Of a stretch of DNA of 53,214 nt, positions 20,181 through 48,433 are shown one piece after another. Each line of letters opens with the position of its first letter. The first letter of the stretch is position 1. The notes under the pieces are model-generated. The model did not search any database. It was not told the origin of the DNA and saw only the letters and a list, made by a program, of their open reading frames with translations. Location: contig JBGPTS010000002.1 of NCBI GenBank assembly GCA_041490745.1, positions 1-53,214 of the forward strand, in the 5' to 3' direction. The position numbers and the translations under genes were made by a program. Source of the DNA: Candidatus Binatia bacterium (GTDB lineage: Bacteria > Desulfobacterota > Binatia > UBA9968).

Positions 20181-20194
20181 CAGGCATCAGGATA

Positions 20195-20222: not shown

Positions 20223-20241
20223 GCGAGCCGACGCCATCCGC

Positions 20242-20349: not shown

Positions 20350-20353
20350 CGTC

Positions 20354-22275: not shown

Positions 22276-22289
22276 CCTTCCGCCCTTGT

Positions 22290-24032: not shown

Positions 24033-24035
24033 TCA

Positions 24036-24134: not shown

Positions 24135-24137
24135 TAT

Positions 24138-24797: not shown

Positions 24798-25011
24798 GAG
24801 ATCAATTTTCCTTTTTTGGTTTATCCCGACCCAAAATTTTTTCGCGGCAAGGTTTTTCGATCCGTTCTTTTTCGATCGGGTTCTACTTTTTTGGTTCTTG
24901 CTAACATAGCCATGTGGCCTTTGCAAGAGGAATCGCCCGGTCCGCCGCGGCAACCGCGTAAAAACCCCGCGGCTTGAGCGGTTTTGAATATCGTGATAAT
25001 CATATATATCT

Positions 25012-25875: not shown

Positions 25876-27908
25876 ATGCGGACCTGACGCTCATGGGTGT
25901 TCTCGTCAACGGCGCAATCGTGTGTTATCTCGCGGGCGCGCTCGCCGCGCTGTCGGGCAACGATCGCCGGGGACGCTTACTGGGAGCCTCGGGCGCGCTT
26001 TTGGGCGCGGTCTTTTCGTTGGGCCTCGGAGTTACGGCGCTCGCGACCGGCTCGGTCTTCATCGCCTCCTTCGACTTTCTTCCGTTAACCGGACTGGCGC
26101 TCCGCATCGATGGGCTAAGCGCGCCGTTCCTCATTCTGACCGGGCTTGTCGGAGCGGCTTCGGCGGTTTACGGCTTCGGATACTCGGCGGCGTACGAAAA
26201 TGTTTATTCCCTGCGCAAACTGGGCGCGCTGTTCAATCTCTTGCTCCTCACGCTCACGCTCCAGGTCATGGCCGACAACGCGCTGACGTTTCTCCTCCTA
26301 TGGGAAGCCGTGTCGTTGCTCGCGTATCTCCTGGTGCTGACGGAGCATCGCGAGCCGGCGACCGTTCGAGCAGCAAACTGGTACGTCGCGATCACGCACG
26401 TCGGATTCGCCGCGTTGCTGGCGATGTTTTTTCTCCTCGCGGCCGGCGACCCGACGGCCGGTTTCGATACGCTGCGCGCCAACGCGCCCAACGTGACGGC
26501 GCGGAACGTAATTTTTCTCCTCGCGCTGATCGGGTTCGGCGCCAAAGCCGGCATGATTCCGCTCCACGTCTGGCTCCCGATGGCCCACCCCGTTGCGCCG
26601 AGCCATGTCTCCGCGCTCATGTCGGGGGTCGTCATCAAGATGGGCATTTACGGCTTTTGCCGCGTCGCGCTCGATCTCATGGGCGGCGGCCCCGCCTGGT
26701 GGGGCGGCGCGGTTCTCGCGTTGGGAGTCGGGTCGGCTCTCTTCGGCGTCCTCTATGCTTTGATGGAGCACGATCTCAAACGTCTGCTCGCGTATCACTC
26801 GGTGGAGAATATCGGCATCATCTTCATCGGCATCGGCGCCGGATTGCTGTTTCAAAGTTACGGCTTGACGAAGTTGGCCGTCCTCGGCTTCGTGGCGGCT
26901 CTGTATCACGCCATCAATCACGCCTGCTTCAAGGGGCTGCTGTTTCTCGGCGCGGGTTCGGTTCTGCACGCGACCGGCACGAGAAATATGGAAGAGATGG
27001 GCGGCCTCATCAGGAAGATGCCGCGCACCGCGCTCGCGTTTCTGATCGGCGCCGCGGCGATTTCGGCGCTCCCGCCGCTCAACGGATTCGCCTCCGAGTG
27101 GCTTCTCTTCCAGACGCTGCTGGGCGGCGCGCAAATCCCCGAGCCGGCGGTTGCCTTGATGATACCGATCGCGGTCGCCCTGCTGGCGCTCACGGGCGGT
27201 CTTGCCATGGCTTGTTTCGTCAAGGCTTTCGGCATCACGTTTCTTGCGATCCCCCGCTCCCATGCGGCGGAGCAGGCGCATGAATCTCCTGGGTCGATGC
27301 AGGCGGGCATGGGAATTCTCGGATTCGCCTGCGTCGCTCTCGGATTGACTCCGTTCCTGGTGGTTCCCGTGTTGGGCCGCGCCCTTGCGGGGATCGGCGG
27401 GCTCCCTTCGGACGCGGCGCTCTTTTCGCTCGCGCTGCCGCTCGGCGTTCCCGGCACGTCCGGCTCGATGTCCTCTCCGTTTCTAGCCGCCGGTTTGCTG
27501 ATCCTCCTCGGACTTGTCGCGCTCGCGCTCCGGCTCGCCGGCGTAAATCGTCGAACCCGCGTCGGCGACACTTGGGGTTGCGGCAGGATCGCGCAGACGC
27601 CGAGGATGCAGTATACGGCTACGGCCTTCGCCGAGCCGCTTCGGCGCGTCTTTGCCGAACTCTATCGACCCACGAAAGATCTCTCGATCGATTTTCATCC
27701 GGAGTCTAAATACTTTGTCCAATCCATCGAGTATCAGAGCGAAATTCACCCTTGGTTTGAAAAGCTGCTCTATCAACCGCTGATCGGAATTTTTCATAGG
27801 ATCGCCGATCGTGTCCGCGGGATACAAGCTGGCTGGCTGGGCCTTTACCTGACCTACATGCTCGTCGGTCTTATCGCGTTACTGGTTTTTGCGTGGTGGA
27901 TGCCATGA
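25872..27908 (+). CDS. HyfB/HycC/NuoL-like antiporter-type membrane subunit
   Basis: 678 aa, polytopic. Proton-conducting-transporter motifs (WEAVSLLAYLLV, GAKAGMIPLHVWLPMAHP). GTGA overlap with the upstream gene. Confidence 0.85.
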   Translation: MNADLTLMGVLVNGAIVCYLAGALAALSGNDRRGRLLGASGALLGAVFSLGLGVTALATGSVFIASFDFLPLTGLALRIDGLSAPFLILTGLVGAASAVYGFGYSAAYENVYSLRKLGALFNLLLLTLTLQVMADNALTFLLLWEAVSLLAYLLVLTEHREPATVRAANWYVAITHVGFAALLAMFFLLAAGDPTAGFDTLRANAPNVTARNVIFLLALIGFGAKAGMIPLHVWLPMAHPVAPSHVSALMSGVVIKMGIYGFCRVALDLMGGGPAWWGGAVLALGVGSALFGVLYALMEHDLKRLLAYHSVENIGIIFIGIGAGLLFQSYGLTKLAVLGFVAALYHAINHACFKGLLFLGAGSVLHATGTRNMEEMGGLIRKMPRTALAFLIGAAAISALPPLNGFASEWLLFQTLLGGAQIPEPAVALMIPIAVALLALTGGLAMACFVKAFGITFLAIPRSHAAEQAHESPGSMQAGMGILGFACVALGLTPFLVVPVLGRALAGIGGLPSDAALFSLALPLGVPGTSGSMSSPFLAAGLLILLGLVALALRLAGVNRRTRVGDTWGCGRIAQTPRMQYTATAFAEPLRRVFAELYRPTKDLSIDFHPESKYFVQSIEYQSEIHPWFEKLLYQPLIGIFHRIADRVRGIQAGWLGLYLTYMLVGLIALLVFAWWMP

Positions 27909-28846
27909 GCCGCTGGTCGGTGGAAATTTTCCAGGTCGTCTTCGCGGTGTTGGTGGCGCCGGGGCTGGTGGGTTTGATCCGCTGGATCAAAGCGCGGCTG
28001 CAGAGTCGGCTGGGCGCGCCGGTGTGGCAGCCGTACTTCGAACTCAGGAAACTTTTTCACAAGGAAGCCGTGGTCTCGACCAACGCGTCGTGGCTTTTTC
28101 GCTTTGCGCCGTACGCCGTCTCCGCCAGCACACTCGCGATCGTCTTTCTTGTTCCGGTGCTCGTGGCGCCGCGCGGTTTAGATAGCGTGGGGGACCTGTT
28201 CGTCGTCGTTTATTTGCTCCTGCTCGGAACCTTTTGGCTCGCGCTCGCCGGCCTCGATCCGGGGTCGGCCTTCGGCGGCATGGGCTCGAGCCGCGAGGTC
28301 ACCGTCGCCGCGCTCGCCGAGCCGACCACCGCCACGGCGATTTTCTCGCTGGCGCTCGGGGCCGGCTCGACCAATCTTGGAGCGATCGTTGTCGCGACGC
28401 TGAACGATCCCTGGACGGTATTGACGCCGGGCCACCTGCTGGCTTTTGCCGCGCTTTTTATCGTCGCCGTCGCCGAGACGGGCCGGCTTCCCGTCGACAA
28501 CCCGTCGACGCACCTGGAGCTGACGATGATTCACGAGGCGATGATCCTCGAATATTCCGGCCGATATCTCGCCCTGCTCGAATGGGCGGCGTGGCTGAAA
28601 CTTTTCATCTTCGTCTCGCTGCTCGCGAATCTGTTTTTTCCCTGGGGTATTGCAACGACGCTCACGCTGAGCGCGCTCTCGTGGGCTGCGATCGCGTTGC
28701 TCGTGAAGCTTCTGCTTCTCGCCATCGTGATCGCCGTGATGGAAACCCGCGTCGCCAAGCTCAGACTGTTTAGAGTGCCGGAGCTGCTCACCGCGTCGTT
28801 CCTGCTGGCCCTGCTTGCGATCACATCGTCGTTTCTCTTGAGGTAA
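27893..28846 (+). CDS. HycD/HyfC/NuoH-like membrane subunit
   Basis: 317 aa with about 8 TM helices. ETGRLPVDNPSTHLELTMIHEAMILEYSG is the NuoH/HycD signature region. Confidence 0.85.
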   Translation: MVDAMSRWSVEIFQVVFAVLVAPGLVGLIRWIKARLQSRLGAPVWQPYFELRKLFHKEAVVSTNASWLFRFAPYAVSASTLAIVFLVPVLVAPRGLDSVGDLFVVVYLLLLGTFWLALAGLDPGSAFGGMGSSREVTVAALAEPTTATAIFSLALGAGSTNLGAIVVATLNDPWTVLTPGHLLAFAALFIVAVAETGRLPVDNPSTHLELTMIHEAMILEYSGRYLALLEWAAWLKLFIFVSLLANLFFPWGIATTLTLSALSWAAIALLVKLLLLAIVIAVMETRVAKLRLFRVPELLTASFLLALLAITSSFLLR

Positions 28847-28849
28847 GAC

Positions 28850-29506
28850 ATGAGCCCGCTTTTTTCACAATTGGCCGTGCTGGGATCGAGCCTGACGCTC
28901 ATTTTCGCGCTGATGCTTTTGTGGCACCGCAGCGTTCATGCCTACACCACCGCCTTCATGTGGCAGTCGGTGGTTTTGGCCGCGATCGCCGCCGTCGTCG
29001 CCTACTTCGAGCGCGAGACCGAGCTGTACTTTGTCGCGGCGATGTTTCTGTTGTTGAAAGGATGGCTCATTCCGCGGCTCTTGCGCCGGATGGAAGAGCC
29101 GTTCGGCGCCGAGCAGGAGCTTCAACCTTACGTCAATACGGCGACCTCGCTGCTCGTCTGCGGTCTGCTCGTGTTGTTCGCCTACGCGGTGTGTCGCCCG
29201 GTCGTCGCATTGAGCCGCCTCCCGACCCGCGCGGGCATGCCTCTGGCGCTCGGCCTCATCTTCGTCAGCCTATTTGTCATCGCGAGCCGCAAGAAAGCCC
29301 TCACGCAGGTGATCGGGTTTCTCATGTTGGAAAACGGCATCGCCCTTCTCGCCGTGCTCGGGACTTACGGCATTCCCTTCGTCGTCGAGATCGGCGTCTT
29401 TCTGGATTTGTTGCTCGGCTTCATGGTGATGCAACTATTCATCTACCGCATTCGCGAGACGTTCGAGAGCATCGATGTCGAGCAACTCGGGAGACTGAGG
29501 CATTGA
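28850..29506 (+). CDS. HyfE-like (NuoK-related) membrane subunit
   Basis: 218 aa. GFLMLENGIALLAV is the NuoK-like motif. Its position matches the hyf gene order. Confidence 0.75.
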   Translation: MSPLFSQLAVLGSSLTLIFALMLLWHRSVHAYTTAFMWQSVVLAAIAAVVAYFERETELYFVAAMFLLLKGWLIPRLLRRMEEPFGAEQELQPYVNTATSLLVCGLLVLFAYAVCRPVVALSRLPTRAGMPLALGLIFVSLFVIASRKKALTQVIGFLMLENGIALLAVLGTYGIPFVVEIGVFLDLLLGFMVMQLFIYRIRETFESIDVEQLGRLRH

Positions 29507-29522
29507 CGGGAGGCGGCGCATC

Positions 29523-30977
29523 GTGATTTTTCTCCTGCTCTTGTTTCCGCCGCTTTTGGCGGCGGCCCTCGCCGCTCTGGTAAAACCGTACCGCGGCTGG
29601 GTCGGTTGGATCACCGCGGCGTTGTCCTTCGCTCCTCTGGGCGCGGCGCTGTCGATTTGCGCGCGCGTGCTGGAGGGGGAAGTCTTGACGTCGGGCGCGG
29701 GAGAATTCTTGCGCGCCGACGGGCTTTCGGCTCTTCTCGCCCTCTGCATCGGTTTTGTCGCCGCGCTGGCGGCGTGGCTCGGTCCGGGGCTGGCCGTGGA
29801 CGACGGCTACGACGCGGCGGAGCGCCGGAGCTATCGCGTCTTCTCGAATTTGTTTGCGTTCACCATGCTCCTCGCGGTCACGGCGCACAACGTGGGCGTG
29901 ATGTGGGTGGCCGTGGAGGCGACGACCATCACGTCCGCGATGCTCATTCCGCTCCATATCACGAAGGCGTCGGTGGAAGCGTCGTGGAAGTACATACTGA
30001 TCGGCTCGGTCGGCATCGCCCTGGCATTCGTCGGAACGGTCTTGGCCTACTTCGATTTCGTCAACCTCGCCGGCGAGCAGCCTACCGCGCTCAACTGGAC
30101 CTCGCTCCTCCACTCCGCGCCCGTCCTCCACGACGCGGTGCTCAAGCTCGCGTTTGTTTTCATTCTGATCGGTTACGGGACCAAGGCCGGCCTTGCACCC
30201 ATGCACACATGGCTGCCGGACGCCCACTCCGAATCGCCGTCGGCGCTCTCGGCGATGATGTCCGGCGTTTTGCTCGCGGTGGCGATTTACGCGATCGTGC
30301 GCTGGAAGATCGTCGTCGATGCCGCCGTCGGGCCGGCGTTTACCAACCGGCTCCTCATCGCGCTGAGCCTCCTGTCGCTCGCGATCGCCGCGTTCAGTCT
30401 GATCGGCCAGCGCAATTACAAGCGGATGCTGGCGTATTCGAGTATCGAGCACACCGGTCTCACCTGCCTGGGCCTGGCGCTCGGTCCGCTGGGAATATTC
30501 GCCGCCATGCTGCACATGGTCAATCATACGGTGACCAAATCGATGATGTTTCTGCTCGCCGGGCGCGTTCAACAGCGGTACCGATCGACCGAGATCGCCG
30601 AGGCGACCGGTCTCGCGGGAACGATGCCGGTCACGGCGGGCTTTTTCGCCGCGGGAATGTTCGCGATCGCGGGCCTGCCGCCGTTCGGGCTGTTTATTTC
30701 CGAATTTGCTCTGGTGCGCGCCGGTTTTGCCGCCGGGCGAGCGTGGCTCATGGCCGCGGTGCTCGTGCTGGTCGTCGTGGCGTTCACGGCGCTCGTGACG
30801 CATTTGAACCGCATGCTCTACGGGACGCCGCCCCAGTCGATTTTTGTCGGAGAACGGGAGCGCTGGGCGCTCGTGCCGCCGGCGCTCTGCCTGCTGATTC
30901 TGCTGATTCTGGGTTTGATGTTGCCCGAGCCGTTCAGCCGGTTGCTCAACAAGGTCGTGGAGATCGCCGCGCCATGA
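29523..30977 (+). CDS. HyfF/NuoM-N-like antiporter-type membrane subunit
   Basis: 484 aa. GYGTKAGLAPMHTWLPDAHSESP and YSSIEHTG motifs. Confidence 0.85.
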   Translation: MIFLLLLFPPLLAAALAALVKPYRGWVGWITAALSFAPLGAALSICARVLEGEVLTSGAGEFLRADGLSALLALCIGFVAALAAWLGPGLAVDDGYDAAERRSYRVFSNLFAFTMLLAVTAHNVGVMWVAVEATTITSAMLIPLHITKASVEASWKYILIGSVGIALAFVGTVLAYFDFVNLAGEQPTALNWTSLLHSAPVLHDAVLKLAFVFILIGYGTKAGLAPMHTWLPDAHSESPSALSAMMSGVLLAVAIYAIVRWKIVVDAAVGPAFTNRLLIALSLLSLAIAAFSLIGQRNYKRMLAYSSIEHTGLTCLGLALGPLGIFAAMLHMVNHTVTKSMMFLLAGRVQQRYRSTEIAEATGLAGTMPVTAGFFAAGMFAIAGLPPFGLFISEFALVRAGFAAGRAWLMAAVLVLVVVAFTALVTHLNRMLYGTPPQSIFVGERERWALVPPALCLLILLILGLMLPEPFSRLLNKVVEIAAP

Positions 30978-32571: not shown

Positions 32572-33126
32572 TTGCGCAACGCTCTTTGGAATGCTAAGCG
32601 AAGGAACTGTTCTTTTGGAACCCACGTGAACTTTCTCGCCGTCTTAGAGAACGCGAATCTCTGGCTCCATCTCCTTGCCGCGTCCGTTTGGGTCGGCGGA
32701 ATGATCTTCTTTCTCTTTGTCTTCGGTCCCGCGGCGCGCAGCCTCGCGCCGTCCGAGCGCTTGCGCGCGCTCGACCACGGGCGCGAATCGTTCCAAATGT
32801 TGTCGTGGATCGCGATCCTTCTTCTGTTTCTCACCGGCGCGCTGAATGTTTACTTTCGCGCCGCGGCGGGCGGCAGTCATTTCGGTCCGGGTTATTATTC
32901 GATTCTCGGCATCAAGCTGCTGCTCTTTGTCGCGATGATTTTTCATCACTCGCTGCAGGCGTTCAAATACGGGCCGAGACTCGCGTCCGCGAAAATCGAG
33001 GACACCGGCGGCGCATGGCCGGAGCCTCTCGTCGCCGCCGAGAAAAAATGGTTCACGCTCTTGAAAATCAACATGACCCTCGGCGTGATCGTGTTGCTGC
33101 TTGGCTGGGGTCTCGCCGGAAAATAA
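32572..33126 (+). CDS. 4-TM membrane protein, weakly CopD-like (start TTG 32572 or GTG 32626)
   Basis: NLWLHLLAASVWVGGMIFF resembles the CopD-family first helix. The stop lies 2 nt before the ggt ATG. Confidence 0.45.
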   Translation: MRNALWNAKRRNCSFGTHVNFLAVLENANLWLHLLAASVWVGGMIFFLFVFGPAARSLAPSERLRALDHGRESFQMLSWIAILLLFLTGALNVYFRAAAGGSHFGPGYYSILGIKLLLFVAMIFHHSLQAFKYGPRLASAKIEDTGGAWPEPLVAAEKKWFTLLKINMTLGVIVLLLGWGLAGK

Positions 33127-33128
33127 AA

Positions 33129-34715
33129 ATGGCGAACACATTCACCGCGGGCCGCTCGATGCCGGTGGGACGGCGCGGCATGGTCGTCTCGTCGCAGCCG
33201 CTCGCGACGCAGGCGGGGCTGGAGGTCTTGAAGCGCGGCGGCAATGCCGCCGACGCGACCGTGGCGATGGCCGCGGTGCTGAACGTGGTCGAGCCCATGT
33301 CCACGGGCATCGGCGGCGACGCGTTCGTTTTGATCTATGTCGCCAAGACCGGAGGGATCCAGGCGCTGAACGCCAGCGGACGCGCGCCGTACGCCGCGAC
33401 GCTCGATTATTTTCGAAAGAAAAAGATCGCCGCCGTTCCCGACGCCGGCATGCTGCCGGTCACCGTGCCCGGCGCGCTCGACGGCTGGGCGCTCGTCGCC
33501 GAGCGCTACGGTACGCGGAGCTTGGGAGATTTGCTTCAGCCGGCGATCGACTACGCGGAGAAAGGTTTTCCCGTGGCCGAGAAAACCGCCCACGAATGGG
33601 CCAAGGCGGCGGAGAAATTATCCGCTCACGCGAATTCCGCGGCCGGCTATCTCGTGAACGGCCGCGCGCCGCGCGCGGGAGAAATTTTTCGCCAGCAAAA
33701 TCTCGCCGCGAGCCTTAAGAAAATTGCCGCCGAAGGAAAACAAGTTTTCTACGGCGGCGAGCTGGCCGAAGAGATCGTCCGGTTTTCCGAGCAAAACGGC
33801 GGCCTGTTGTCGCTCAAAGACTTCAAAGACCATACCTCCGCCTGGGTCGAGCCGATCAAGACCTTTTATAAAGGATACGAAATCGTCGAGATACCGCCGA
33901 ACACGCAGGGAATGACCGTGCTCCAGATGCTGAACATGCTGGAGCGCTTCGATATCCGCGCGCTCGGCTTCGGCAGCGCCGCCTACATTCACTTGCTCGT
34001 CGAGATCAAAAAACTCGCCTTCGCCGACCGCGACGCTTACCTCGCCGACCCGGAGGCCGTCCACGTGCCGGTCGAGAAATTAATCGGCAAATCTTACGCC
34101 GCCGAGAGGGCGAAGCGGATCGATCCGGACCGCGCGCGGGAATATTCTCCCGGCCTCGGCGCGGTGTCGGGCGACACGCAGGTCTTTTGCGCCGTGGACA
34201 AGGACGGCAACGCGGTCGCGTTCATCAACAGTCTCTTCGAGAGCTTCGGTTGCGGCCTCGTCGGCGGCGACACCGGCGTCATGCTGCAAAACCGCGGCAA
34301 GCTCTTCTCGCTCGATCCCAAACATCCCAATTGCATCGCGCCGCGCAAGCGCTCACAGCACACGATCATGCCGGCGATGGTGTTCAAGGACAAAAAGCCG
34401 TTTCTGATTTTCGGCGTCACCGGCGCGCACATGCAACCGCAAGGACAGGTGCAGGTGCTGGCGAATTTGATCGATTTCGAGATGCCGCTGCAAGCGGCGA
34501 TGGACGCGCCGCGCGTCAATCACATCGAGGGCTTCGACGTCGCGCTCGAAGCCGGTTTTTCAACGGCGGCGCATGAGGAATTGAAGCGCAAGGGGCACAA
34601 AATCTTAAGCGAAGCCAACTTCGGCGGCAGCCAGGGAATTCTGATTCATCCCGAATTCGGCACGCTCGCCGGCGGCTCCGACCCGCGCAAGGACGGCTGC
34701 GCGATGGGATACTGA
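33129..34715 (+). CDS. ggt: gamma-glutamyltransferase family protein, no signal peptide
   Basis: ATG at 33129 (MANTFTAGRSMPVGRRGMVVSSQPLAT). Ntn autoprocessing site GDTQVF. PRKRSQHTIMP and GGSDPRKDG motifs. Confidence 0.9.
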   Translation: MANTFTAGRSMPVGRRGMVVSSQPLATQAGLEVLKRGGNAADATVAMAAVLNVVEPMSTGIGGDAFVLIYVAKTGGIQALNASGRAPYAATLDYFRKKKIAAVPDAGMLPVTVPGALDGWALVAERYGTRSLGDLLQPAIDYAEKGFPVAEKTAHEWAKAAEKLSAHANSAAGYLVNGRAPRAGEIFRQQNLAASLKKIAAEGKQVFYGGELAEEIVRFSEQNGGLLSLKDFKDHTSAWVEPIKTFYKGYEIVEIPPNTQGMTVLQMLNMLERFDIRALGFGSAAYIHLLVEIKKLAFADRDAYLADPEAVHVPVEKLIGKSYAAERAKRIDPDRAREYSPGLGAVSGDTQVFCAVDKDGNAVAFINSLFESFGCGLVGGDTGVMLQNRGKLFSLDPKHPNCIAPRKRSQHTIMPAMVFKDKKPFLIFGVTGAHMQPQGQVQVLANLIDFEMPLQAAMDAPRVNHIEGFDVALEAGFSTAAHEELKRKGHKILSEANFGGSQGILIHPEFGTLAGGSDPRKDGCAMGY

Positions 34716-39805: not shown

Positions 39806-39834
39806 TTGACACGATTCGGCCGGTACGTTAGCTT
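39806..39834 (+). promoter_or_regulatory. sigma70-like promoter for the riboswitch transcript
   Basis: TTGACA (39806-39811), a 17-nt spacer, then TAGCTT (39829-39834). Lies about 20 nt upstream of riboswitch helix P1. Confidence 0.5.
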
Positions 39835-39853
39835 TAAGCCTACATGCGCGGGA

Positions 39854-39971
39854 CACCTTATCCCGTGTGGCGGTGGTATTGGCCCGTCGATGCCACAGCA
39901 ACCGGTCGCGCCGCTAGGCGCGACGCTGGTGCTAAGTCCAGCCCCCGGTAACACGGGGGATAGATAAGGTG
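39854..39971 (+). promoter_or_regulatory. SAM-I (S-box) riboswitch aptamer
   Basis: P1 is caccttatc / gataaggtg (9 bp). Conserved blocks are UGGCCC, GAUG, AGCAACC and GGUGCUAAGUCCAGC. P3 is UCGCGCC-GCUA-GGCGCGA. P4 is CCCCCG-GUAACA-CGGGGG. The closing segment is AUAGAUAAGG. Confidence 0.85.
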
Positions 39972-39976
39972 AGGGT

Positions 39977-40013
39977 AAAACCTCTTCTTATCTATGAGAA
40001 GAGGTTTTTTTTT
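39977..40013 (+). terminator. intrinsic terminator (riboswitch expression platform)
   Basis: aaaaCCTCTTCT-tatcta-GAGAAGAGGttttttttt. The stem's 5' side (CTTATCTAT) can alternatively pair with the P1 3' strand (ATAGATAAG), giving an antiterminator. Confidence 0.85.
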
Positions 40014-40057
40014 GGCCCATGGGGCTGCGTTTTGAGCAGCCCCGAAAGAAAATAAGC

Positions 40058-40861
40058 ATGAACCCGCGTCTCACATCCGAGCAGATCGAGCGCTACAGCC
40101 GCCAGATCATGATCCCCGATCTCGGCGGCAAGGGGCAGATCCGTCTCAAGCAGGGAAAAGTTCTGGTCGTCGGCGCCGGCGGACTGGGATGCCCGGCGGC
40201 GTTCTATCTCGTCGCCGCCGGAATCGGCGCGCTTGGACTGGTCGATAGCGACAGCGTCGAGCTGTCCAACTTGCAGCGGCAAATCCTTCACGCGACCTCC
40301 GACATAGGCCGCGAGAAAGTGGACTCGGCGAAAGACAAACTCAACGCGCTCAATCCGGACGTGGAAGTGCGAACGTACCCCCTGCGGCTCGACGCCGGCA
40401 ACGCGGCGGAAATTTTCGCCGTGTATGATTTCATTATCGACGGGAGCGACAACTTCGCGACCAAATTCCTCGTCAACGACCTGGCCGTCGATCTCGGCAA
40501 AGCCTTTTCCCATGCCGGCATCGTCCGCCTTCAAGGCCAGACGATGACCGTGATTCCCCACAAGAGCGCGTGCTATCGCTGCGTCTTTCAAGAGCCGCCC
40601 ACGCCCGGCGAGATCATGAATTGCCAGCAGGCCGGAATTCTCGGCGCCGTCGCCGGCGTCATCGGCTCGATCCAGGCGACCGAGGCGATTAAATACCTAG
40701 CGGGGATGGAAGAGGATTTGCTCGTCGATCGAATGCTGACCTACGACGCCAAGACGGTTAAATTTCGGACCATCGCAGTCGGGCGAAACCGCGCCTGTTC
40801 CGCGTGCGGAGAAAAAGCAGAGAGGAGAAGTCATGAGCTACGTTCAAGGACTGAAGTGTAG
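40058..40861 (+). CDS. ThiF/MoeB/HesA-family E1-like adenylyltransferase (no rhodanese domain)
   Basis: The ATG at 40058 lies downstream of the terminator. RYSRQIMIPDLGGKGQ..VLVVGAGGLGCP nucleotide fold. Two CxxC pairs (CYRC, CSAC) form the Zn site. Confidence 0.85.
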   Translation: MNPRLTSEQIERYSRQIMIPDLGGKGQIRLKQGKVLVVGAGGLGCPAAFYLVAAGIGALGLVDSDSVELSNLQRQILHATSDIGREKVDSAKDKLNALNPDVEVRTYPLRLDAGNAAEIFAVYDFIIDGSDNFATKFLVNDLAVDLGKAFSHAGIVRLQGQTMTVIPHKSACYRCVFQEPPTPGEIMNCQQAGILGAVAGVIGSIQATEAIKYLAGMEEDLLVDRMLTYDAKTVKFRTIAVGRNRACSACGEKAERRSHELRSRTEV

Positions 40862-42101
40862 AGAGTGCGGCCAGGATTATCCCAAAGAGCCGCTGCACGT
40901 TTGCGAGACCTGCTTCGGTCCGCTGGAGGTCGTTTACGACTACGACGGCATCAAGAAGGCGCTGAGCCGCGAGAAAATCGCCGCGCGCGCGAAAAATCTC
41001 TGGCGTTACCGAGAGCTGCTGCCGATCGACGGCGAGCCGCAGGCCGGCCTCTACTCCGGCTTCACGCCGCTCGTCCGCGCGCACCGATTAGGCGCAGCGC
41101 TCGGCGTCAAGGAACTTTACATCAAAGACGACTCGGTGAATCATCCGACGTTCTCTTACAAAGATCGCGTTGTCTCGGTCGCCATATCCAAGGCGATCGA
41201 GTTCGGCTTCGATACGGTCTCGTGCGCTTCGACCGGCAATCTCGCCAACTCCGTCGCCGCCCACGCGGCCAAGGCCGGTCTCAACTGCTATGTTTTCATC
41301 CCCGACGGCCTGGAGCAGGGAAAAATCATCGGCTCGGCTATCTACGGCCCGAAGACGGTCGCGATTCAGGGGAACTACGATGACGTGAATCGGCTCTGCA
41401 GCGAGATCGCAGACAAGTACGGCTGGGCGTTCGTCAACGTCAACCTGCGCCCCTATTACGCCGAGGGCGCGAAGACGCACGGCTTCGAGGTCGCCGAGCA
41501 GCTTGGCTGGAAATTGCCGAAGCACATCGTCGTCGCCTCCGCCGGCGGCACGATCCTGCCGAAAATTTTCAAAGCCTTCAAGGAACTCGAACAGGTCGGC
41601 CTGATCGAAAGCAGCGAATGCAAAATTTACACGGCGCAGGCAACCGGCTGCGCGCCGATTTTCCAGGCGCTCAAGAAAGGCACGGACCTGATCAGCCCGG
41701 TGAAACCCAACACGATCGCGAGCTCGATCGCCATCGGCAATCCCGCCGACGGTTACTACGTTCTCCAGGCGGTGCGCGAATCGGGCGGCTGGGGCGAGAG
41801 CGTCACCGACGAAGAGATTATTGACGGCATCAAGCTCCTCGCGCGAACCGAAGGAATCTTCACCGAGCCCGCCGGCGGCACCGAAGTCGCGGTGACCAAA
41901 AAATTGATCCAGCAAGGGCGAATCCCGCGCGACGAGTCGATCGTCATCAGCGTCACCGGCAACGGGTACAAGACGCTCGAAGTCGTCGCGGCCAGCGTCG
42001 AGAAGCCTTTCAAGATCGGCTCAAGTCTCAAAAATTTCGACGATCTCTATCAGGAGCTCGCCCAGGCGTCGCCGGGCAAAAGGGCGGCGGGAGAAGGATA
42101 A
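40833..42101 (+). CDS. threonine-synthase-family PLP enzyme with N-terminal zinc ribbon
   Basis: CRECGQ...CETCFGPLEV ribbon. PLP lysine in HPTFSYKDR. 422 aa. AGGAG RBS. 29-nt overlap with the E1 gene. Confidence 0.85.
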   Translation: MSYVQGLKCRECGQDYPKEPLHVCETCFGPLEVVYDYDGIKKALSREKIAARAKNLWRYRELLPIDGEPQAGLYSGFTPLVRAHRLGAALGVKELYIKDDSVNHPTFSYKDRVVSVAISKAIEFGFDTVSCASTGNLANSVAAHAAKAGLNCYVFIPDGLEQGKIIGSAIYGPKTVAIQGNYDDVNRLCSEIADKYGWAFVNVNLRPYYAEGAKTHGFEVAEQLGWKLPKHIVVASAGGTILPKIFKAFKELEQVGLIESSECKIYTAQATGCAPIFQALKKGTDLISPVKPNTIASSIAIGNPADGYYVLQAVRESGGWGESVTDEEIIDGIKLLARTEGIFTEPAGGTEVAVTKKLIQQGRIPRDESIVISVTGNGYKTLEVVAASVEKPFKIGSSLKNFDDLYQELAQASPGKRAAGEG

Positions 42102-42106
42102 AGTTT

Positions 42107-44641
42107 TTATTGGATCGTCAGCGAAAGCGGTTTTGTGACGCTGCGAATCGAGTCGGTGACGCGAGCGGTGATATTGTAAGTTCCTTGCGTGCCCCCACCC
42201 GGAATGCCGGTGATCGCCCCAGTCGAAGGATTCAAGTTTAATCCCGTCGGCAGACTTCCCGACGCCAAATCCCACGCATACGGCAACTTTCCGCCGGTAG
42301 CTTTCAGCGTAGCGCTGTAGTTCTTTCCCACCGTGCCCTTCTTCAAGCTTTTGGTGCTGATCGCCAGCACGGGAAAGATTTTGATCGTGAATGTCTTCGT
42401 GACCGCGGGGCTGCCCGCGCTATCCGTCACTCTCACGGTGAAGCTCGGAAGTTTCTTCGGGCTGGCTTTGGTCGGAGTTCCGCCGATTCCATTGGAGTTG
42501 GGAATAAGGCCCAATGGCAGCGTGCCCGAAATGATGGAGACAGTATAAGGAGCGACGCCGCCGCCGATCTGTAAATCTCCGTCGTAAGGATCCCCCACTT
42601 CGCCGTCGGGCAAACTGAGAGCGCCGATGACGAGCGGCGGCGGTGCATAAACCGCCGTGACGGTCTGGTCCGCGTTCATCGTCAGGTTGCAGGTGACGAT
42701 CCCGACCGCGCTGTTGCAACCCGCCCAGTGGCTAAAATCATTTCCGCCTGCGCTTGACGGCGCCGTCAAGGTCACCGCCGTATTGTGATCGTAAGTTCGC
42801 GTGAACTGCGTGATACCGTCGCCGAAGCCGTCGTTGTCGTCGGGGCTCACGGTGACCGATACTCCGCCGTCGGGATTGGACGAGACGACCGTAAGCGCAT
42901 GAGGCGTAAACACGGGCGCCGTGCAGGACGGGAATTTGAACGAGCCGATGCCCGTCTGCCAATTGCCGCTCGTGCCGTTCGCCTGGCTGCCGTAGTACTG
43001 GTTCGTGTACCAGAACGTGCAATCGTCGGCCGGGTCGACGCTCATCGCGCTGTAATCGCCCCACCGATCGCAGGGCGAGCCGCCGCAATTGTTGGTCTGC
43101 GAACCGGCGCCCGCGATGAGCTGGACTTCGGACTGGGGCAGCGTGTTCAGCGGATCGCTCGCGAGCCGCCCCGAGTAAGCGATGCTCGGGAAGTTCGGCG
43201 CGACGTCGTTCGACGTGCTGTAGCCGAGCGCCATGTTGCCCTGATTGTCCACGGCGAGACTCCCCATCCAGCGGTAAAGGGTGGCGTCGGGCGCGTAGAT
43301 TTGCTGCTGCACCGGCGTGCTGCCGACCACGCCGCCAGTCACGTCGATCTCCGCCCACTGAAGCGTCACGGGAGAAGTGCCAACGTTGTGGACCACCCAC
43401 AGCGATTCATCCGTGCCCACCTTGCGATATTGCACCTTTTGCATCAGGCGGTCGTCGATGCTGTCGAGCTTATTGGTCGTGTTGGGTTGGGGAATGATGG
43501 CGCCGTTGGGAAATGAATAGCTCGCGTGGCCGACAATAGTCGGGGAGTCAGGCATGCCGCCGCCGGCGCCGCAGTTCGGACCGGCCGTGAACTGCCTCAC
43601 CTCGAACGCGGGGCCATTTTGCGATTCGGAGACGAAATAGTTCGGCGTGCCGGGCGGCGGCAGTTGGTCCGGCAAGACGCCGCGCATGTTGCTGGGAATC
43701 ATCGTGCCGGTGCTGCTATTGATGAAGCCTAGGAAGAATGTCAGCGGGGCGCCGCTGTACAGATCGCTCCGGCTGAACGAGGCAAAAAGAGTTCCGATGA
43801 AATGATCGCCAGGTTCGTGAAATGCATTCGCCGCCATGTACAAACAGTCGGGCCAAATCCCAAACTTGCTATAGTCGTTGAGCGCGCCAACCGGGGGACC
43901 GGTGCCGCCGGGATCCATGCGCACGGGATAGAGCCACCAGCCTCCCGAGACGGGATCGTTAGTTTTCGAGGCCGCGATACACTGGTAGAACGGCGACACC
44001 GGATTCTTACCGCTGAAAGCGAATGCAAAGTGGGTGAGAATCCAGCGGTCCGCGAGCTGATCGTACAGAACGACAGGGTCGCCCTGGCTATTGCCGTTGC
44101 AAGGGTTGGCGCCGCTTGGGCTCCACAACTGGTCCTCGGTGAACGACGCGAGCAGCGCGCCGGTCTTGTCGTAGATCGCATAGGCGGTATTGACGGCCTG
44201 GATGTAATGATTGAGACCGACATCGCCGTTCGGGTCCGGCGGCCAGCCGTCGCCGCACTGCCCGCCGAGACAGACGTCCGTGAAGTTCAGACCCGGAAAG
44301 TTTTGACTCGGGGGAGGCATCGGAGCGAGCGGAGCGGATACTTCGGCGAAGGCCGTTTCCTTGACCGGCGACGCGAGTTTCGCCTGCGCGGGCGGACGGA
44401 GGAGAGGACGGTAGGGCCGCCGCTGTAGACCGGCGCGGCTTAGCGGGACTTGCTTGAGATCGCGCATGTCGCCGTCGAATTCGAACGGCGCGACCCTGTC
44501 CATTTCTACCGTGACGTCAGTTTGCGCCGATCTCTCAGCGGCTCGCGGCGCTTGGGCCCAAACGGCGCACGGTATCCCGAGGGTTAGGATGAAAAAAACA
44601 ATCAGGGAGAGGTTGAATGGGTGGGTCGATTTTACTTTCAC
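42107..44641 (-). CDS. large secreted protein: unknown ~550-aa N-terminal domain, InlB-B-repeat-like domain, two Ig-like (He_PIG-type) repeats
   Basis: GTG start with signal peptide LSLIVFFILTLGIPCAVWA. Two C-terminal GxxPxGLxLNxxTGxIxGTP-type repeats. RWGDYSAMSVDP motif in the N-terminal domain. Confidence 0.7.
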   Translation of the reverse strand: MKVKSTHPFNLSLIVFFILTLGIPCAVWAQAPRAAERSAQTDVTVEMDRVAPFEFDGDMRDLKQVPLSRAGLQRRPYRPLLRPPAQAKLASPVKETAFAEVSAPLAPMPPPSQNFPGLNFTDVCLGGQCGDGWPPDPNGDVGLNHYIQAVNTAYAIYDKTGALLASFTEDQLWSPSGANPCNGNSQGDPVVLYDQLADRWILTHFAFAFSGKNPVSPFYQCIAASKTNDPVSGGWWLYPVRMDPGGTGPPVGALNDYSKFGIWPDCLYMAANAFHEPGDHFIGTLFASFSRSDLYSGAPLTFFLGFINSSTGTMIPSNMRGVLPDQLPPPGTPNYFVSESQNGPAFEVRQFTAGPNCGAGGGMPDSPTIVGHASYSFPNGAIIPQPNTTNKLDSIDDRLMQKVQYRKVGTDESLWVVHNVGTSPVTLQWAEIDVTGGVVGSTPVQQQIYAPDATLYRWMGSLAVDNQGNMALGYSTSNDVAPNFPSIAYSGRLASDPLNTLPQSEVQLIAGAGSQTNNCGGSPCDRWGDYSAMSVDPADDCTFWYTNQYYGSQANGTSGNWQTGIGSFKFPSCTAPVFTPHALTVVSSNPDGGVSVTVSPDDNDGFGDGITQFTRTYDHNTAVTLTAPSSAGGNDFSHWAGCNSAVGIVTCNLTMNADQTVTAVYAPPPLVIGALSLPDGEVGDPYDGDLQIGGGVAPYTVSIISGTLPLGLIPNSNGIGGTPTKASPKKLPSFTVRVTDSAGSPAVTKTFTIKIFPVLAISTKSLKKGTVGKNYSATLKATGGKLPYAWDLASGSLPTGLNLNPSTGAITGIPGGGTQGTYNITARVTDSIRSVTKPLSLTIQ

Positions 44642-44766
44642 GTTTTCATCTTCGACAAGAAATGGCCAAGCCTTGACACCGACGGACGCTTTGGACGCGC
44701 AATGCTTCCGATTGATTTCGGTGATGGTACGCTTTCAAACGTTCCGGGTAAAGGGACGCGTCTGCC

Positions 44767-44795
44767 TTGAAAGGTTCATCGGGAAGATTTATAAA
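44767..44795 (+). promoter_or_regulatory. near-consensus sigma70 promoter for the carrier-cysM-NIL operon
   Basis: TTGAAA (44767-44772), a 17-nt spacer, then TATAAA (44790-44795). The GGGAGG RBS and the ATG at 44852 follow. Confidence 0.45.
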
Positions 44796-44851
44796 CGAGT
44801 TGAATTAGTTGTGCCCGAAGCGATCAAAATCGGGATGAGGGAGGTCGGTTT

Positions 44852-45127
44852 ATGAGTGTTCGTGTCCGCGTGCCAACTCCGCTGCGCAAATTCACCAACG
44901 GAGCCGACGAAGTGAACGCCCAGGGCCAGAACGTGCGCGCCCTGGTGGAAGACCTGGAAAAAAATTTTCCGGGCATCAAAGAACGAATCTGCGACGAGAC
45001 GGGAAAAGTCCGGCGCTTCGTCAACTTGTACGTCAACGGTGACGACATCCGCTTTCTGCAGAATCTGGAAACTTCGCTCAAGGAAGGCGACAACATCTCG
45101 ATCGTCCCCGCCATCGCCGGCGGATGA
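44852..45127 (+). CDS. MoaD/ThiS-family sulfur-carrier protein (CysO-like) ending in Gly-Gly
   Basis: 91 aa with a beta-grasp pattern (VNLYVNGDDI...EGDNISIVPAIAGG*). Confidence 0.85.
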   Translation: MSVRVRVPTPLRKFTNGADEVNAQGQNVRALVEDLEKNFPGIKERICDETGKVRRFVNLYVNGDDIRFLQNLETSLKEGDNISIVPAIAGG

Positions 45128-45144: not shown

Positions 45145-46146
45145 ATGCCCAATCCGAACGCCGCCCGCTGGATCGCCGCCGCCAGGCTCCGAGAGCCGAA
45201 AAAAATCGACTCGGTGATCGACCTGATCGGCGACACGCCGCTTTTGGAGATTCGTAAAATCGCCGAAGGCATTTCGCCCGGCGTGCGCATCTTCGCCAAG
45301 CTCGAAGGCTTCAATCCCGGCGGTTCGGTCAAAGACCGGCCGGCTTTGAAAATGATTCAGGAAGGCATCAAGTCGGGAAAACTCGCCGCCGGAAAAACCA
45401 TTTTGGATTCCACTTCGGGAAACACGGGCATCGCTCTGGCGATGATCGGCCGCATTCTCGGCTATCCGGTCGAACTCGTCATGCCGTCGAACGTCAGCGC
45501 CGAGCGCAAGCGCATCATCGAGGCGTACGGCGCCAAAGTCATCTACAGCGATCCGCTCGAAGGCTCCGACGGCGCGATCAGGATGTGCCGCAAGATTCTC
45601 GAACAAAGCCCCGGAAAATATTTCAAGCCCGACCAGTATTTCAATCCGATGAACAGCCAGGCGCACTACGAAACCACGGGGCCGGAGGTTTACCGCCAGA
45701 CCGACGGTGCGATCACGCATTTCATCGCCGGCATCGGCACCAGCGGCACGATCATGGGCGCGGGGCGCTATCTCAAGGAAAAAAATCCCAAGATCCGGGT
45801 GATCGCGGTCGAGCCCGACGACGCGCTGCACGGCCTCGAAGGGCTGAAGCACATGGCGACGTCCATCGTGCCGGGAATTTATCACGAGAAGGAGTTGGAC
45901 GAAAAAATTCCCGCTTCGACCGAAGACGCCTACGCGATGGTTTATCGGCTCGCCCAGGAAGAGGGCATCCTGGTAGGGCAATCGTCCGGCGCCGCGATGC
46001 ACGCCACGTTGCAAATCGCCCGCAAGCTCCGCGCCGGCGTGCTCGTGACGGTCTTCCCCGATTTCGGCGACAAATATCTCACGACCAACCTGTGGGTCGG
46101 CTGGCGCGACCGTATGGCGGTCGGGAACTTGCAATTTTCGATTTGA
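45145..46146 (+). CDS. cysteine synthase family PLP enzyme (CysM/CysK-like)
   Basis: GDTPLLEI, NPGGSVKDRPA (PLP Lys), TSGNTGIALA, GIGTSGTIMG. Confidence 0.9.
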   Translation: MPNPNAARWIAAARLREPKKIDSVIDLIGDTPLLEIRKIAEGISPGVRIFAKLEGFNPGGSVKDRPALKMIQEGIKSGKLAAGKTILDSTSGNTGIALAMIGRILGYPVELVMPSNVSAERKRIIEAYGAKVIYSDPLEGSDGAIRMCRKILEQSPGKYFKPDQYFNPMNSQAHYETTGPEVYRQTDGAITHFIAGIGTSGTIMGAGRYLKEKNPKIRVIAVEPDDALHGLEGLKHMATSIVPGIYHEKELDEKIPASTEDAYAMVYRLAQEEGILVGQSSGAAMHATLQIARKLRAGVLVTVFPDFGDKYLTTNLWVGWRDRMAVGNLQFSI

Positions 46147-46156: not shown

Positions 46157-46414
46157 ATGAAAGCCCAGAAAGAAAAGGTTTGCGAGCGCGTCTATCTGAC
46201 CTTCCCCAAGAACCTGGTGAAAGAGCCGCTGGTCTGCCTGATGGCGAAAAAGTTCGACATCCTTTTCAACATCCGCGGCTCCACGGTCACGGCCGAAATG
46301 GGACTCGTCGCTCTGGAAATCGACGGCGAGCGCGCCGAAGTCGATAAGGCCGTCAAGTGGCTCAAAGAAAAAGGCGTGATCGTCGAGCCGATCGAAAAGA
46401 ACGTCATCGAATAG
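46157..46414 (+). CDS. stand-alone NIL-domain protein
   Basis: 85 aa. The pattern VYLTFPKNLVKEPLVCLMAKKFDILFNIRGSTV...LEIDGE resembles the MetN C-terminal / NIL fold. It lies 10 nt after the cysM-like stop. Confidence 0.7.
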   Translation: MKAQKEKVCERVYLTFPKNLVKEPLVCLMAKKFDILFNIRGSTVTAEMGLVALEIDGERAEVDKAVKWLKEKGVIVEPIEKNVIE

Positions 46415-46840: not shown

Positions 46841-47308
46841 CTACTGGGCCATTGCCGAAATCGACAGGATCAAGACGCCACCCTCGTGCGCCGGGCCGCC
46901 GAGGAGAAAATTGCCGCGGTTGGGAAACCGCACGGTGGTATCGACGATCGGCTTCTCGCCTTCGAGAAGCCGGACCTTGAGCGCGATCCGGTTATTGCGG
47001 TATTCGGCGGGCATGATGACGAGCGAGCGCCCACCGACAATCTCAAACACGCTGTTCGCCTGCCACGCGGCTTTTTGCACGTCCTCGCGGACCAAACGGT
47101 AACAACGGTATTTGATCACTTCGAGCTGCTGCTTCATCTTGGCGAGCTGCGAGTCGAGGCAGTCCGCCTGATTGGTGGCCATGATGGTGCCGATTTTTAG
47201 CTGCACGGGCTGCGGCGCCGGCTCGGCGGCGCCGAGCGGCGAAGAATACAAAGCCACGCCGAGGCTAAAAAGCCTGCTCGCTCGAAGCAGGCTCCGCGGA
47301 AGTTTCAT
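46841..47308 (-). CDS. secreted hypothetical protein, last gene of the ECF sigma operon
   Basis: ATG at 47308 (MKLPRSLLRASRLFSLGVALYSSPLGAAEP signal peptide). Overlaps the end of the anti-sigma gene. Confidence 0.55.
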   Translation of the reverse strand: MKLPRSLLRASRLFSLGVALYSSPLGAAEPAPQPVQLKIGTIMATNQADCLDSQLAKMKQQLEVIKYRCYRLVREDVQKAAWQANSVFEIVGGRSLVIMPAEYRNNRIALKVRLLEGEKPIVDTTVRFPNRGNFLLGGPAHEGGVLILSISAMAQ

Positions 47309-47810
47309 CTTCGCTTTCCTGATTCTCAAACAACCAGATAACGGTTGTTTTGGTCTTCGCCTCGCGCAGCAAGGCAACGTTAAAACCGTGGCCGTCGATG
47401 TGCTCGACCGCCGCCAGGTTGGTTTGGCCGAAAACCGGGGGCCAACCGGGGAAGAATTTTTCCAGCGAGAAAATGCCGAGAAGAAGGATGATCACCGCCG
47501 GCACCGCCCAGGCGAGCCGCGGCGGCGTCAAAAAGCCGCGCGCCCAATCGATGATACGATCGTGCCATGGTCTTTCTTCGGCGATCCGTTGGCGCACGCC
47601 GGCCCAAAACGGCTCGAAGGCGACTTGCGACGCTTCCTTTTCCAGCATGCTCTTCAGCGAGGAATCAATGCGTTCGAGCCGCGCCTTCTCCGCGGCACAC
47701 GACGCGCAACTCTGGAGATGGAGCTGTACGTCGGCGGCGTCGGATGCGCCCAGCTCTCGGTCCAGCCATGCGCCGAGCGACTGTCTGATTTCTTGGCAAT
47801 CTTGAATCAT
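47265..47810 (-). CDS. anti-sigma factor (zf-HC2 type), single-pass membrane protein
   Basis: N-terminal HLQSCASC zinc motif and a central TM helix (AWAVPAVIILLLGIF). 4-nt overlap with the sigma gene. Confidence 0.7.
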   Translation of the reverse strand: MIQDCQEIRQSLGAWLDRELGASDAADVQLHLQSCASCAAEKARLERIDSSLKSMLEKEASQVAFEPFWAGVRQRIAEERPWHDRIIDWARGFLTPPRLAWAVPAVIILLLGIFSLEKFFPGWPPVFGQTNLAAVEHIDGHGFNVALLREAKTKTTVIWLFENQESEDETSAEPASSEQAF

Positions 47811-48433
47811 AAATACGAGCCCAGCTTTTCTTGAAGCTTCTTCCGCGCGTAATGGAGGCGGCTCATCACGGTGCCTTCCGAGCAGCCCATCACGCGCCCG
47901 ATTTCTTTATACGAAAGCCCTTCCACCGCCCTCATTAGAATGACCGCTTTGTGATCGGGTGTCAATTCGTCGATCGCGCTAAGGAGCTTCTTTCCGAGCT
48001 GCCGGTCGCGCAACTCACGATAAGGATCGCTGCCTAACGTTTCCGTTTCGACGATCACTTCGTCCATGTTCTCTTTAAGATCCATTGCGCCGCGTTTCTG
48101 CCGGCGCTGAAAATCGATGGCCAGGTTGACCGCGATCCGATAAAGCCAGGTGTAAAAACTCGACCCGCCTTTGAACCGCTTGATGTTTCTAAACGCCCGA
48201 TAAAAACTCTCCTGCGTCACCTCCAGGGCATCCTCGCGGTGGTGCAGCATGCCTAGGATCACCATGAATACTCTGCGATAATACTTGGCTGTGAGCGTCT
48301 CGTAAGCGGCGACATCCCCTTGTTGGCATTTGCGGACGAGATCCCACTCGCTAATCTCCACAGCAACCCTTGTCTCTTTCGACGCGGCGGAATGAGATTT
48401 ATTCAAGGGAGAATCCGGCCATCGCTTTGCCAA
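47807..48433 (-). CDS. ECF-type RNA polymerase sigma-70 factor (RpoE-like)
   Basis: Region 2 (FYTWLYRIAVNLAIDFQRR) and region 4 (LSYKEIGRVMGCSEGTVMSRLHYARKKL). The start may be internal. Confidence 0.9.
   Translation of the reverse strand: MAKRWPDSPLNKSHSAASKETRVAVEISEWDLVRKCQQGDVAAYETLTAKYYRRVFMVILGMLHHREDALEVTQESFYRAFRNIKRFKGGSSFYTWLYRIAVNLAIDFQRRQKRGAMDLKENMDEVIVETETLGSDPYRELRDRQLGKKLLSAIDELTPDHKAVILMRAVEGLSYKEIGRVMGCSEGTVMSRLHYARKKLQEKLGSYL

Follow-up and report, generated by a model that had tools for sequence, protein, structure and literature searches.

Sulfur for homocysteine or cysteine can be delivered as the thiocarboxylate of a small carrier protein, and several bacterial systems of this kind have been described. 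The closest to the locus presented here is the MetM/MetO route of Streptomyces albulus. In the account of Hasebe et al. 2024 (Appl Environ Microbiol 90:e01247-24, as cited) given by GapMind 2026, this route consists of the carrier MetO, the hydrolase Mec, the E1 enzyme MoeZ, and MetM, which is homologous to threonine synthase and makes homocysteine out of O-phosphohomoserine with the MetO thiocarboxylate; the same account states that MetM is often misannotated as threonine synthase. This agrees with an earlier note on the DNA studied here, which named such a pair from Streptomyces. A 2025 paper described a riboswitch for S-adenosylmethionine (SAM) upstream of S. albulus metM, as well as MetM homologs in cyanobacteria. 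In this work, we analyze a 53-kb stretch of DNA from Candidatus Binatia (53,214 nucleotides, contig JBGPTS010000002.1; hereafter the window), in which a SAM-I riboswitch precedes the genes for an E1 adenylyltransferase and for a paralog of threonine synthase (ThrC).

Three other systems are relevant for comparison. The first is the CysO-CysM-Mec-MoeZ system of Mycobacterium tuberculosis, with which the window shares a carrier homologous to CysO over its full length and a CysM-family gene placed immediately after it. In other phyla, related clusters carry a JAMM/Mec-like hydrolase gene, always together with a CysM-like gene. Unlike the mycobacterial system, the window contains no mec, and its E1 has no rhodanese domain. 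The mycobacterial cysO-cysM operon is not known to be controlled by a SAM riboswitch. The second is the HcyS-HcyF-HcyD-MetY pathway of Wolinella succinogenes (Krishnamoorthy and Begley 2011, as cited), in which a ThiF-type E1 likewise makes the carrier thiocarboxylate and homocysteine arises by transfer of its sulfur to an activated homoserine. Sulfite-reductase-like genes, which recur in some clusters related to the window, are a further likeness. In contrast, the Wolinella enzyme is described as MetY, a fold-type I protein using O-acetylhomoserine, whereas here a fold-type II ThrC paralog is found and O-phosphohomoserine is expected; the Wolinella carrier is also described as requiring C-terminal trimming, while the window carrier already ends in Gly-Gly. 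The third is the DUF39 homocysteine pathway of methanogens and Desulfovibrio, which requires NIL/ferredoxin proteins. There, as here, homocysteine formation has a genetic link to a NIL-domain protein. The DUF39 chemistry, which joins aspartate semialdehyde and sulfide, is unrelated, and the window has neither DUF39 nor a ferredoxin domain, its NIL protein being a bare domain of 85 amino acids.

We consider it probable, with good confidence, that the locus is the regulated front end of a protein-thiocarboxylate operon for sulfur amino acids, that is, a MetM/MetO-type route to homocysteine under SAM control. As in S. albulus, a ThrC-family enzyme distinct from the housekeeping ThrC lies near a ThiS-type carrier ending in Gly-Gly, SAM-I stands upstream, and an E1 is needed for the thiocarboxylate. 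Since this kind of system, including its control by a SAM riboswitch, has already been published, the Binatia locus is a new example and not a new mechanism. It shows local variations. The host is not an actinomycete, and the E1 is short, lacks the rhodanese domain of MoeZ, and is encoded within the operon as its first gene. The CysO-type carrier is located together with CysM-like and NIL genes, no Mec/JAMM hydrolase gene is nearby, and an insertion has uncoupled the carrier from the riboswitch unit.

The SAM-I riboswitch and the E1 gene

The leader begins with a promoter-like element on the forward strand (39806-39834), read from the sequence as TTGACA (39806-39811), a 17-nt spacer, and TAGCTT (39829-39834). 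Among five Binatia leaders that were compared, the -35 hexamer and the TA of the -10 hexamer are invariant. The promoter proposed in the earlier note is thus present as described and has an invariant -35 hexamer; its -10 hexamer is weak, matching the consensus at only three of six positions, and was missed by a consensus scan.

A SAM-I (S-box) riboswitch aptamer follows at 39854-39971 (+), identified both by its Rfam model and by its fold. When the whole window was scanned with Rfam, with gathering scores as the threshold, RF00162 (SAM-I) was the only match to reach it, at 39855-39970 (+) with 72.8 bits against a cut-off of 44.4 (E 3.3e-15), covering model positions 1-108 of 108. The conserved blocks AGCAACC and GGUGCUAAGUCCAGC can be read directly in the aptamer. 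The minimum-free-energy fold of 39850-40016 shows a 9-bp P1 (39854-39862 with 39963-39971), a four-way junction, and a downstream hairpin; its energy of -85.5 kcal/mol compares with a mean of -57.3 kcal/mol for 200 shuffled sequences (z = -6.7). SAM-I aptamers scoring 86-90 bits also stand upstream of the E1 gene in all six related loci compared (L001, L003-L007). The aptamer had been proposed at exactly these positions before the covariance model was run, and the score gives that reading strong support.

An intrinsic terminator (39977-40013, +; -17.0 kcal/mol) lies downstream of the aptamer. Its stem spans 39977-40008, with 14 pairs when the A-U extension is counted and a 4-nt loop, and it ends in nine U, encoded by the nine T at 40005-40013. 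Stem and U-run are kept in the five Binatia leaders. The 3' strand of P1 together with GUGAGGG can instead pair with the 5' arm of the terminator, forming an antiterminator hairpin at 39960-39995 (+; -18.3 kcal/mol) in which 39960-39969 pairs with 39986-39995 and 39971-39974 with 39981-39984, giving 14 bp and one U-U mismatch. The antiterminator therefore uses bases common to P1 and to the terminator, and no other fold of the expression platform is more stable before transcription has passed position 40008. Both the terminator and the alternative pairing had been read from the letters in the earlier note; fold and sequence bear out the first, and the second proves longer than was described.

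This layout is typical of transcriptional OFF switches, and the response to SAM itself is inferred from it. A sigma-70-type promoter at 39806-39834 would start a leader that folds into the SAM-I aptamer. At high SAM, P1 would be locked, its 3' strand would be barred from the antiterminator, the terminator would form, and transcription would end before the genes. At low SAM, the antiterminator would form first and RNA polymerase would continue. Between the U-run and the start codon of the E1 gene there is also a GC hairpin (40021-40044), consisting of GGGGCUGC, a 7-nt loop, and GCAGCCCC. It was considered as a second regulatory element and rejected, as it is conserved neither in L095 nor in L001, two of the related loci. 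The start codon of the E1 gene has no obvious Shine-Dalgarno sequence.

The first gene behind the switch (40058-40861, +) encodes a ThiF/MoeB-type E1 adenylyltransferase of 267 amino acids (Pfam ThiF, 273 bits). The protein passes the NCBIfam MoeB subfamily model NF004281 (269.5 bits, cut-off 266), and Uba4, E. coli ThiF, and MoeB are its best matches among solved structures. Assignment to the MoeZ type, in which a ThiF domain is followed by a C-terminal rhodanese domain, was rejected: the protein aligns only to positions 14-262 of the 392 in the MoeZ model, with 284.5 bits against a cut-off of 647, and behaves as a short MoeB/ThiF-type E1. An alternative start at 40019 was rejected in favor of 40058 because the relatives are 264-267 amino acids long. 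The E1 gene overlaps the gene for the ThrC-like enzyme by 29 nt. This order of an E1 and a ThrC-family enzyme with a zinc ribbon, overlapping by that length, is the one given in the earlier note, and Pfam agrees with both assignments.

The ThrC-like enzyme and its relatives

The second gene (40833-42101, +) encodes a MetM-like ThrC paralog of 422 amino acids with an N-terminal Cys4 zinc ribbon, predicted to be an O-phosphohomoserine-dependent homocysteine synthase. It is a fold-type II enzyme of the ThrC family, dependent on pyridoxal phosphate (PLP), with a Pfam PALP score of 237 bits. The ribbon cysteines C9, C12, C24, and C27 are invariant in a 12-sequence alignment and 81-100% conserved among 89 members of the clade. 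A NinF Pfam match over residues 8-32 was discarded, as it falls below its cut-off (27.1 against 27.5) and reflects only the Cys-x2-Cys spacing of the ribbon.

The database names seen for this protein and its relatives are all "threonine synthase", and there are reasons to take the name seriously. If it were correct, the 422-aa protein would be a working threonine synthase, either the housekeeping enzyme or a second isozyme; the riboswitch would then balance the two branches, and the E1 and the carrier would serve the CysM-like enzyme only. The protein passes the NCBIfam threonine synthase equivalog models NF006050 (319 against 303) and TIGR00260 (299 against 167). Its PLP lysine K110, in an S-x-K-D-R motif, and its substrate loop S133-T134-G135-N136 are common to the clade and to canonical ThrC. 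A clade member has, moreover, been found active as a threonine synthase in vitro, and some related genes adjoin thrB and hom; both points are taken up below.

Comparison with canonical enzymes speaks against that name. The protein is 34-38% identical to canonical ThrC, and 27 conserved positions differ between the clade and four canonical ThrCs. Against the four solved bacterial ThrCs used as a reference (Aquifex, Bacillus, Thermus, and M. tuberculosis), the protein reaches 176-209 bits at about 35% identity, and its first 55 residues are not covered by any of them, whereas the same four structures give 452-520 bits with the canonical ThrC encoded beside a clade member in Thermodesulfovibrio. 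In a neighbour-joining tree of clade members and canonical ThrC copies, the canonical copies form a long separate branch, and the window protein lies among the Binatia sequences, inside a large clade whose members mostly have a ThiS-type carrier gene downstream. The two types also coexist. In three Nitrospirota loci (L020, L023, L024), a cluster of ThrC-like, ThiS, and NIL genes is followed by a second, canonical ThrC, and the chromosome of Nonomuraea gerenzanensis holds a clade member and, elsewhere, a canonical ThrC. Judged by these sequence relationships, the protein is a paralog and does not belong with the housekeeping ThrC, as the earlier note had suspected.

Gene neighborhoods point in the same direction. 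The homologs were surveyed by a genome scan that yielded 80 loci from about 15 phyla, with 56-72% identity to the ThrC-like protein. A ThiS-type gene lies at most 1.6 kb downstream of the ThrC-like gene in 61 of the 80 genomes, many of them without any CysM-like gene, which is difficult to reconcile with a carrier serving that enzyme only. Among the 69 genomes with at least 2 kb of downstream sequence, 57 have a ThiS-type gene on the same strand. A SAM-I aptamer on the same strand and just upstream of the ThrC-like gene is present in 29 of 80. Near the ThrC-like gene, NIL genes were found in 26 of the 80 genomes, E1 genes in 23, and CysM-like genes in 20. Less frequent are genes for a JAMM/Mec-type hydrolase (12 loci), an aspartokinase-homoserine dehydrogenase fusion (8 loci), a sulfite-reductase-like protein (6 loci), homoserine kinase (5 loci), an Rrf2 regulator (5 loci), and cysteine desulfurase (4 loci). 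Ten loci without SAM-I were checked for other riboswitch classes (SAM-II, SAM-IV, etc.) and had none, so SAM control appears to be common in the family without being universal. The linkage to the carrier and to SAM-I, together with the coexistence of paralogs, supports the proposal made in the earlier note that this enzyme forms homocysteine.

The direction of the predicted control is a further argument. In plants, threonine synthase is activated by SAM. A SAM-OFF switch would cut threonine production when methionine is plentiful, the opposite of the known logic of this branch point; it fits an enzyme of the methionine branch and would be counter-productive for a threonine synthase. Against the passed models and the database names stands the statement in GapMind 2026 that MetM is routinely misannotated as ThrC. 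We therefore regard a working threonine synthase as an unlikely identity for this protein. The same names and models would cause metabolic reconstructions of Binatia and of other phyla to miss the methionine route, and organisms carrying the pair of ThrC-like enzyme and carrier may be wrongly called auxotrophs. The practical value of the present assignment thus lies in annotation.

A different activity within the same fold was also weighed, namely a cysteate-synthase-like or other beta-replacement reaction on O-phosphoserine. Cysteate synthase shares the N-terminal ribbon and is itself homologous to ThrC, and residues 7-383 of the window protein align with its model. The score of 64.9 bits against a cut-off of 324.9 excludes membership in that family, and the nearest relatives with experimental or contextual evidence indicate O-phosphohomoserine as the substrate, which makes such an activity extremely improbable.

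In a MetM/MetO-type route, the chemistry would proceed as follows. The E1 would adenylate the C-terminal Gly-Gly of the carrier encoded at 44852-45127, and a sulfur donor would convert the adenylate to the thiocarboxylate. On the PLP of the MetM-type enzyme, the phosphate of O-phosphohomoserine would be eliminated and the carrier thiocarboxylate would attack the gamma carbon; release of homocysteine would follow, either by hydrolysis or through a Mec-type hydrolase whose gene lies elsewhere. The CysM-like enzyme would probably make cysteine with the same carrier, as in M. tuberculosis.

Several observations weigh against this assignment. In Binatia, it relies on gene context and on homologs from actinobacteria that are about 50% identical, and the tie to S. 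albulus MetM runs through two proxies, from Nonomuraea (53% identical) and from Micromonosporaceae (49-51%). For the cyanobacterial clade member of Microcystis, the 2025 paper reported threonine synthase as well as threonine deaminase activity in vitro and no rise in methionine upon induction. A clade of Acidobacteriota sequences (L022, L026, L028, L029, L042, L044, L045, L048, L057), which is sister to the Binatia sequences, has no adjacent carrier and stands beside genes for thrB/homoserine kinase or hom/aspartokinase-homoserine dehydrogenase. SAM-I is still found upstream in four of its members, and these proteins may be either MetM-like enzymes with a distant carrier or SAM-regulated ThrCs. 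Within the window, a search with seeds from related clusters found no thrB, Mec/JAMM, or sulfur donor gene, and no canonical thrC, the last point counting also in favor of a working threonine synthase. The E1 lacks the rhodanese domain of MoeZ, and the carrier gene in this genome is detached from the riboswitch unit.

The two actinobacterial proxies agree with the published description. The chromosome of N. gerenzanensis, a cultured actinomycete, has SAM-I (68.7 bits), the ThrC-like gene, and a 91-aa carrier that ends in AVAGG and is 52% identical to that of the window. The Micromonosporaceae homolog, which is 51% identical in a representative search and 49% in the tree alignment, has SAM-I directly upstream (77 bits). 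The Nonomuraea sequence comes from NZ_LT559118.1 (L097, L098), an 11.85-Mb PLSDB record, nearly without annotation (10 features), that is labelled 'plasmid I' and is evidently the chromosome.

Modules of the MetM/MetO type are widespread, occurring in Planctomycetota, Verrucomicrobiota, Acidobacteriota, Nitrospirota, Nitrospinota, Cyanobacteria, and Aquificaceae, and they are often merged with CysM, Mec, and E1 genes, which suggests that cysteine and homocysteine synthesis draw on a common source of protein thiocarboxylate. Five clusters from Nitrospirales and Manganitrophaceae (L056, L060, L064, L089, L091) run in the order CysM-like, E1, ThrC-like, ThiS, NIL, and a second E1 gene, so that each holds two different ThiF-type E1 genes; all but L064 also contain a JAMM hydrolase gene. 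An Aquificaceae metagenome-assembled genome (MAG; L040) carries a clade member with 61-62% identity. Price et al. 2018 listed Aquifex among the organisms without a known homocysteine route. As the solved Aquifex 'threonine synthase' 2zsj is of the canonical type, a paralog of the L040 type may fill this gap.

The carrier, CysM-like and NIL genes and the insertion

The carrier gene (44852-45127, +) encodes a CysO/MetO-type sulfur-carrier protein of the ThiS family, 91 amino acids long (Pfam ThiS, 64.6 bits), whose C-terminus AIAGG is followed directly by the stop codon. Its best solved structure is M. tuberculosis CysO (3dwg_C; E 1e-23, full length), and the second best is Amycolatopsis CysO, deposited as a ThiS/MoaD family protein. 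The latter presumably serves 2-thiosugar biosynthesis. The earlier note was right about the position, the ThiS/MoaD type, and the Gly-Gly end of this carrier; what it did not convey is that an 844-aa gene on the opposite strand separates the carrier from the riboswitch unit.

The Amycolatopsis match gives some weight to the idea that the E1 and the carrier work with the PLP enzymes towards a cofactor or secondary metabolite that contains sulfur, or that the carrier serves tRNA thiolation or ubiquitin-like tagging. The scores against the models of the archaeal ubiquitin-like system are also suggestive, the carrier reaching 58.2 against 60 for SAMP1 and the E1 290 against 450 for UbaA. Neither cut-off is reached, and membership in that system was rejected. 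SAM-I recurs on the pair of ThrC-like and carrier genes across phyla, the neighboring genes are those of homoserine metabolism and sulfur assimilation with no natural-product genes, and the layout matches that of the characterised metM-metO system, which together make a cofactor or tagging role very unlikely.

Directly 3' of the carrier gene, in the window and in all Binatia relatives, is a gene for a CysM/CysK-family PLP enzyme (45145-46146, +; 333 amino acids). The protein passes the NCBIfam cysKM subfamily model (351.6 bits against 344) and remains under the cut-off of the cysM model (375 against 394). Against solved CysM/CysK proteins it scores 218-238 bits, with 218 for M. tuberculosis CysM and 232-238 for the CysM of E. 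coli/Salmonella. Being no closer to the mycobacterial enzyme than to the enteric ones, it cannot be assigned specificity for O-phosphoserine; by analogy and position, it is probably a carrier-dependent cysteine synthase.

The operon is completed by a gene for a stand-alone NIL-domain protein of 85 amino acids (46157-46414, +; Pfam NIL, 52 bits), whose only solved relatives are the C-terminal methionine-binding domains of MetN, with weak matches. In the MetN transporter, this domain binds methionine. In the 80-genome survey, stand-alone NIL proteins of about 80-95 amino acids follow the ThiS-type carrier in 26 genomes, usually with 0-190 nt between the genes, and 14 of these 26 have no CysM-like gene. 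Examples are found in L013, L019, L020, L023, L024, L032, L043, L049, L059, L062, L063, L066, L079, L085, and others. The NIL gene occurs independently of the JAMM hydrolase gene, which is present only where a CysM-like gene is present. The actinobacterial loci examined, from the group in which the pathway was first characterised, do not have the NIL gene.

A literature search for a link between NIL domains and sulfur-carrier pathways returned the DUF39 work alone. The requirement for a NIL domain in that unrelated pathway is a hint of a general role related to homocysteine. Tentatively, and with the balance somewhat against it, the MetM/MetO pathway of many phyla may include the NIL protein as a third component that has so far escaped notice. 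One speculation is that it senses methionine or homocysteine and acts on the MetM-like enzyme as a small regulatory subunit, in the manner of the ACT-type small subunits of acetohydroxyacid synthase; another is that it aids the release of homocysteine from the carrier where a Mec-type hydrolase is missing. This conserved partner is the one element that the published pathway, in the accounts cited here, does not explain, and it could lead to something new.

In unsplit relatives, whose ThrC-like proteins are 84% identical to that of the window, the E1, ThrC-like, ThiS, CysM-like, and NIL genes are contiguous and on one strand, and the same order of five genes is found at 72% identity in the Binataceae genomes L015 and L016. 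In the window, the carrier gene lies 2.7 kb downstream of the ThrC-like gene, beyond a gene on the opposite strand (42107-44641, -) that encodes an 844-aa secreted protein with He_PIG/Ig repeats (Pfam He_PIG) and stands outside the pathway. No such gene lies between the ThrC-like and ThiS genes in L001-L007 and L015-L016. Because the relatives have a contiguous operon, we interpret the He_PIG gene as an insertion. It is also present in L095 (5173-7746), a different MAG, with 92% identity, and is absent from all other relatives; its occurrence in two MAGs indicates that the insertion is real and lineage-specific. The stop codon of the He_PIG gene lies 5 nt from that of the convergent ThrC-like gene, with a terminator on neither side.

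Upstream of the detached carrier gene is an internal promoter-like element (44767-44795, +), read from the sequence as TTGAAA, a 17-nt spacer, and TATAAA, and followed by a GGGAGG ribosome-binding site 5' of the carrier gene. An Rfam search of 44560-44900 gave no match at E<=1, and thus no second riboswitch was seen there. The element is kept in L095 and also in the unsplit L001 (10812-10840), where the intergenic region between the ThrC-like and ThiS genes contains no terminator. Its presence in unsplit relatives suggests that the carrier, CysM-like, and NIL genes have an internal promoter that does not depend on the riboswitch. Ancestrally, these last three genes would have been transcribed both by read-through from the riboswitch and from the internal promoter, while in the lineage of the window only the E1 and ThrC-like genes would stay under SAM control. 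The locus is thus a clean natural example of an operon split by an insertion, in which the carrier would rely on a pre-existing internal promoter.

Other genes of the window

Genes for aspartokinase-homoserine dehydrogenase, a sulfite-reductase-like protein, cysteine desulfurase, and Rrf2 were searched for in the window with no homologs found, and of 30 other window genes annotated with Pfam, none is a methionine or threonine gene. The NIL gene is closely followed, at 47265-48433 (-), by genes for an ECF sigma factor and a zf-HC2 anti-sigma factor, a position kept in the Binatia relatives. In the rest of the window (spans 315-9671, 13714-14550, 17774-25025, 25872-30977, and 32688-34715), nothing bears on methionine synthesis. 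These spans include an aerotolerance-type cluster of MoxR/DUF58/BatA/VWA genes, aspartate dehydrogenase, gamma-glutamyltranspeptidase, an operon for an aa3-type cytochrome c oxidase with heme O synthase, and Mrp/Nuo-like antiporter subunits.

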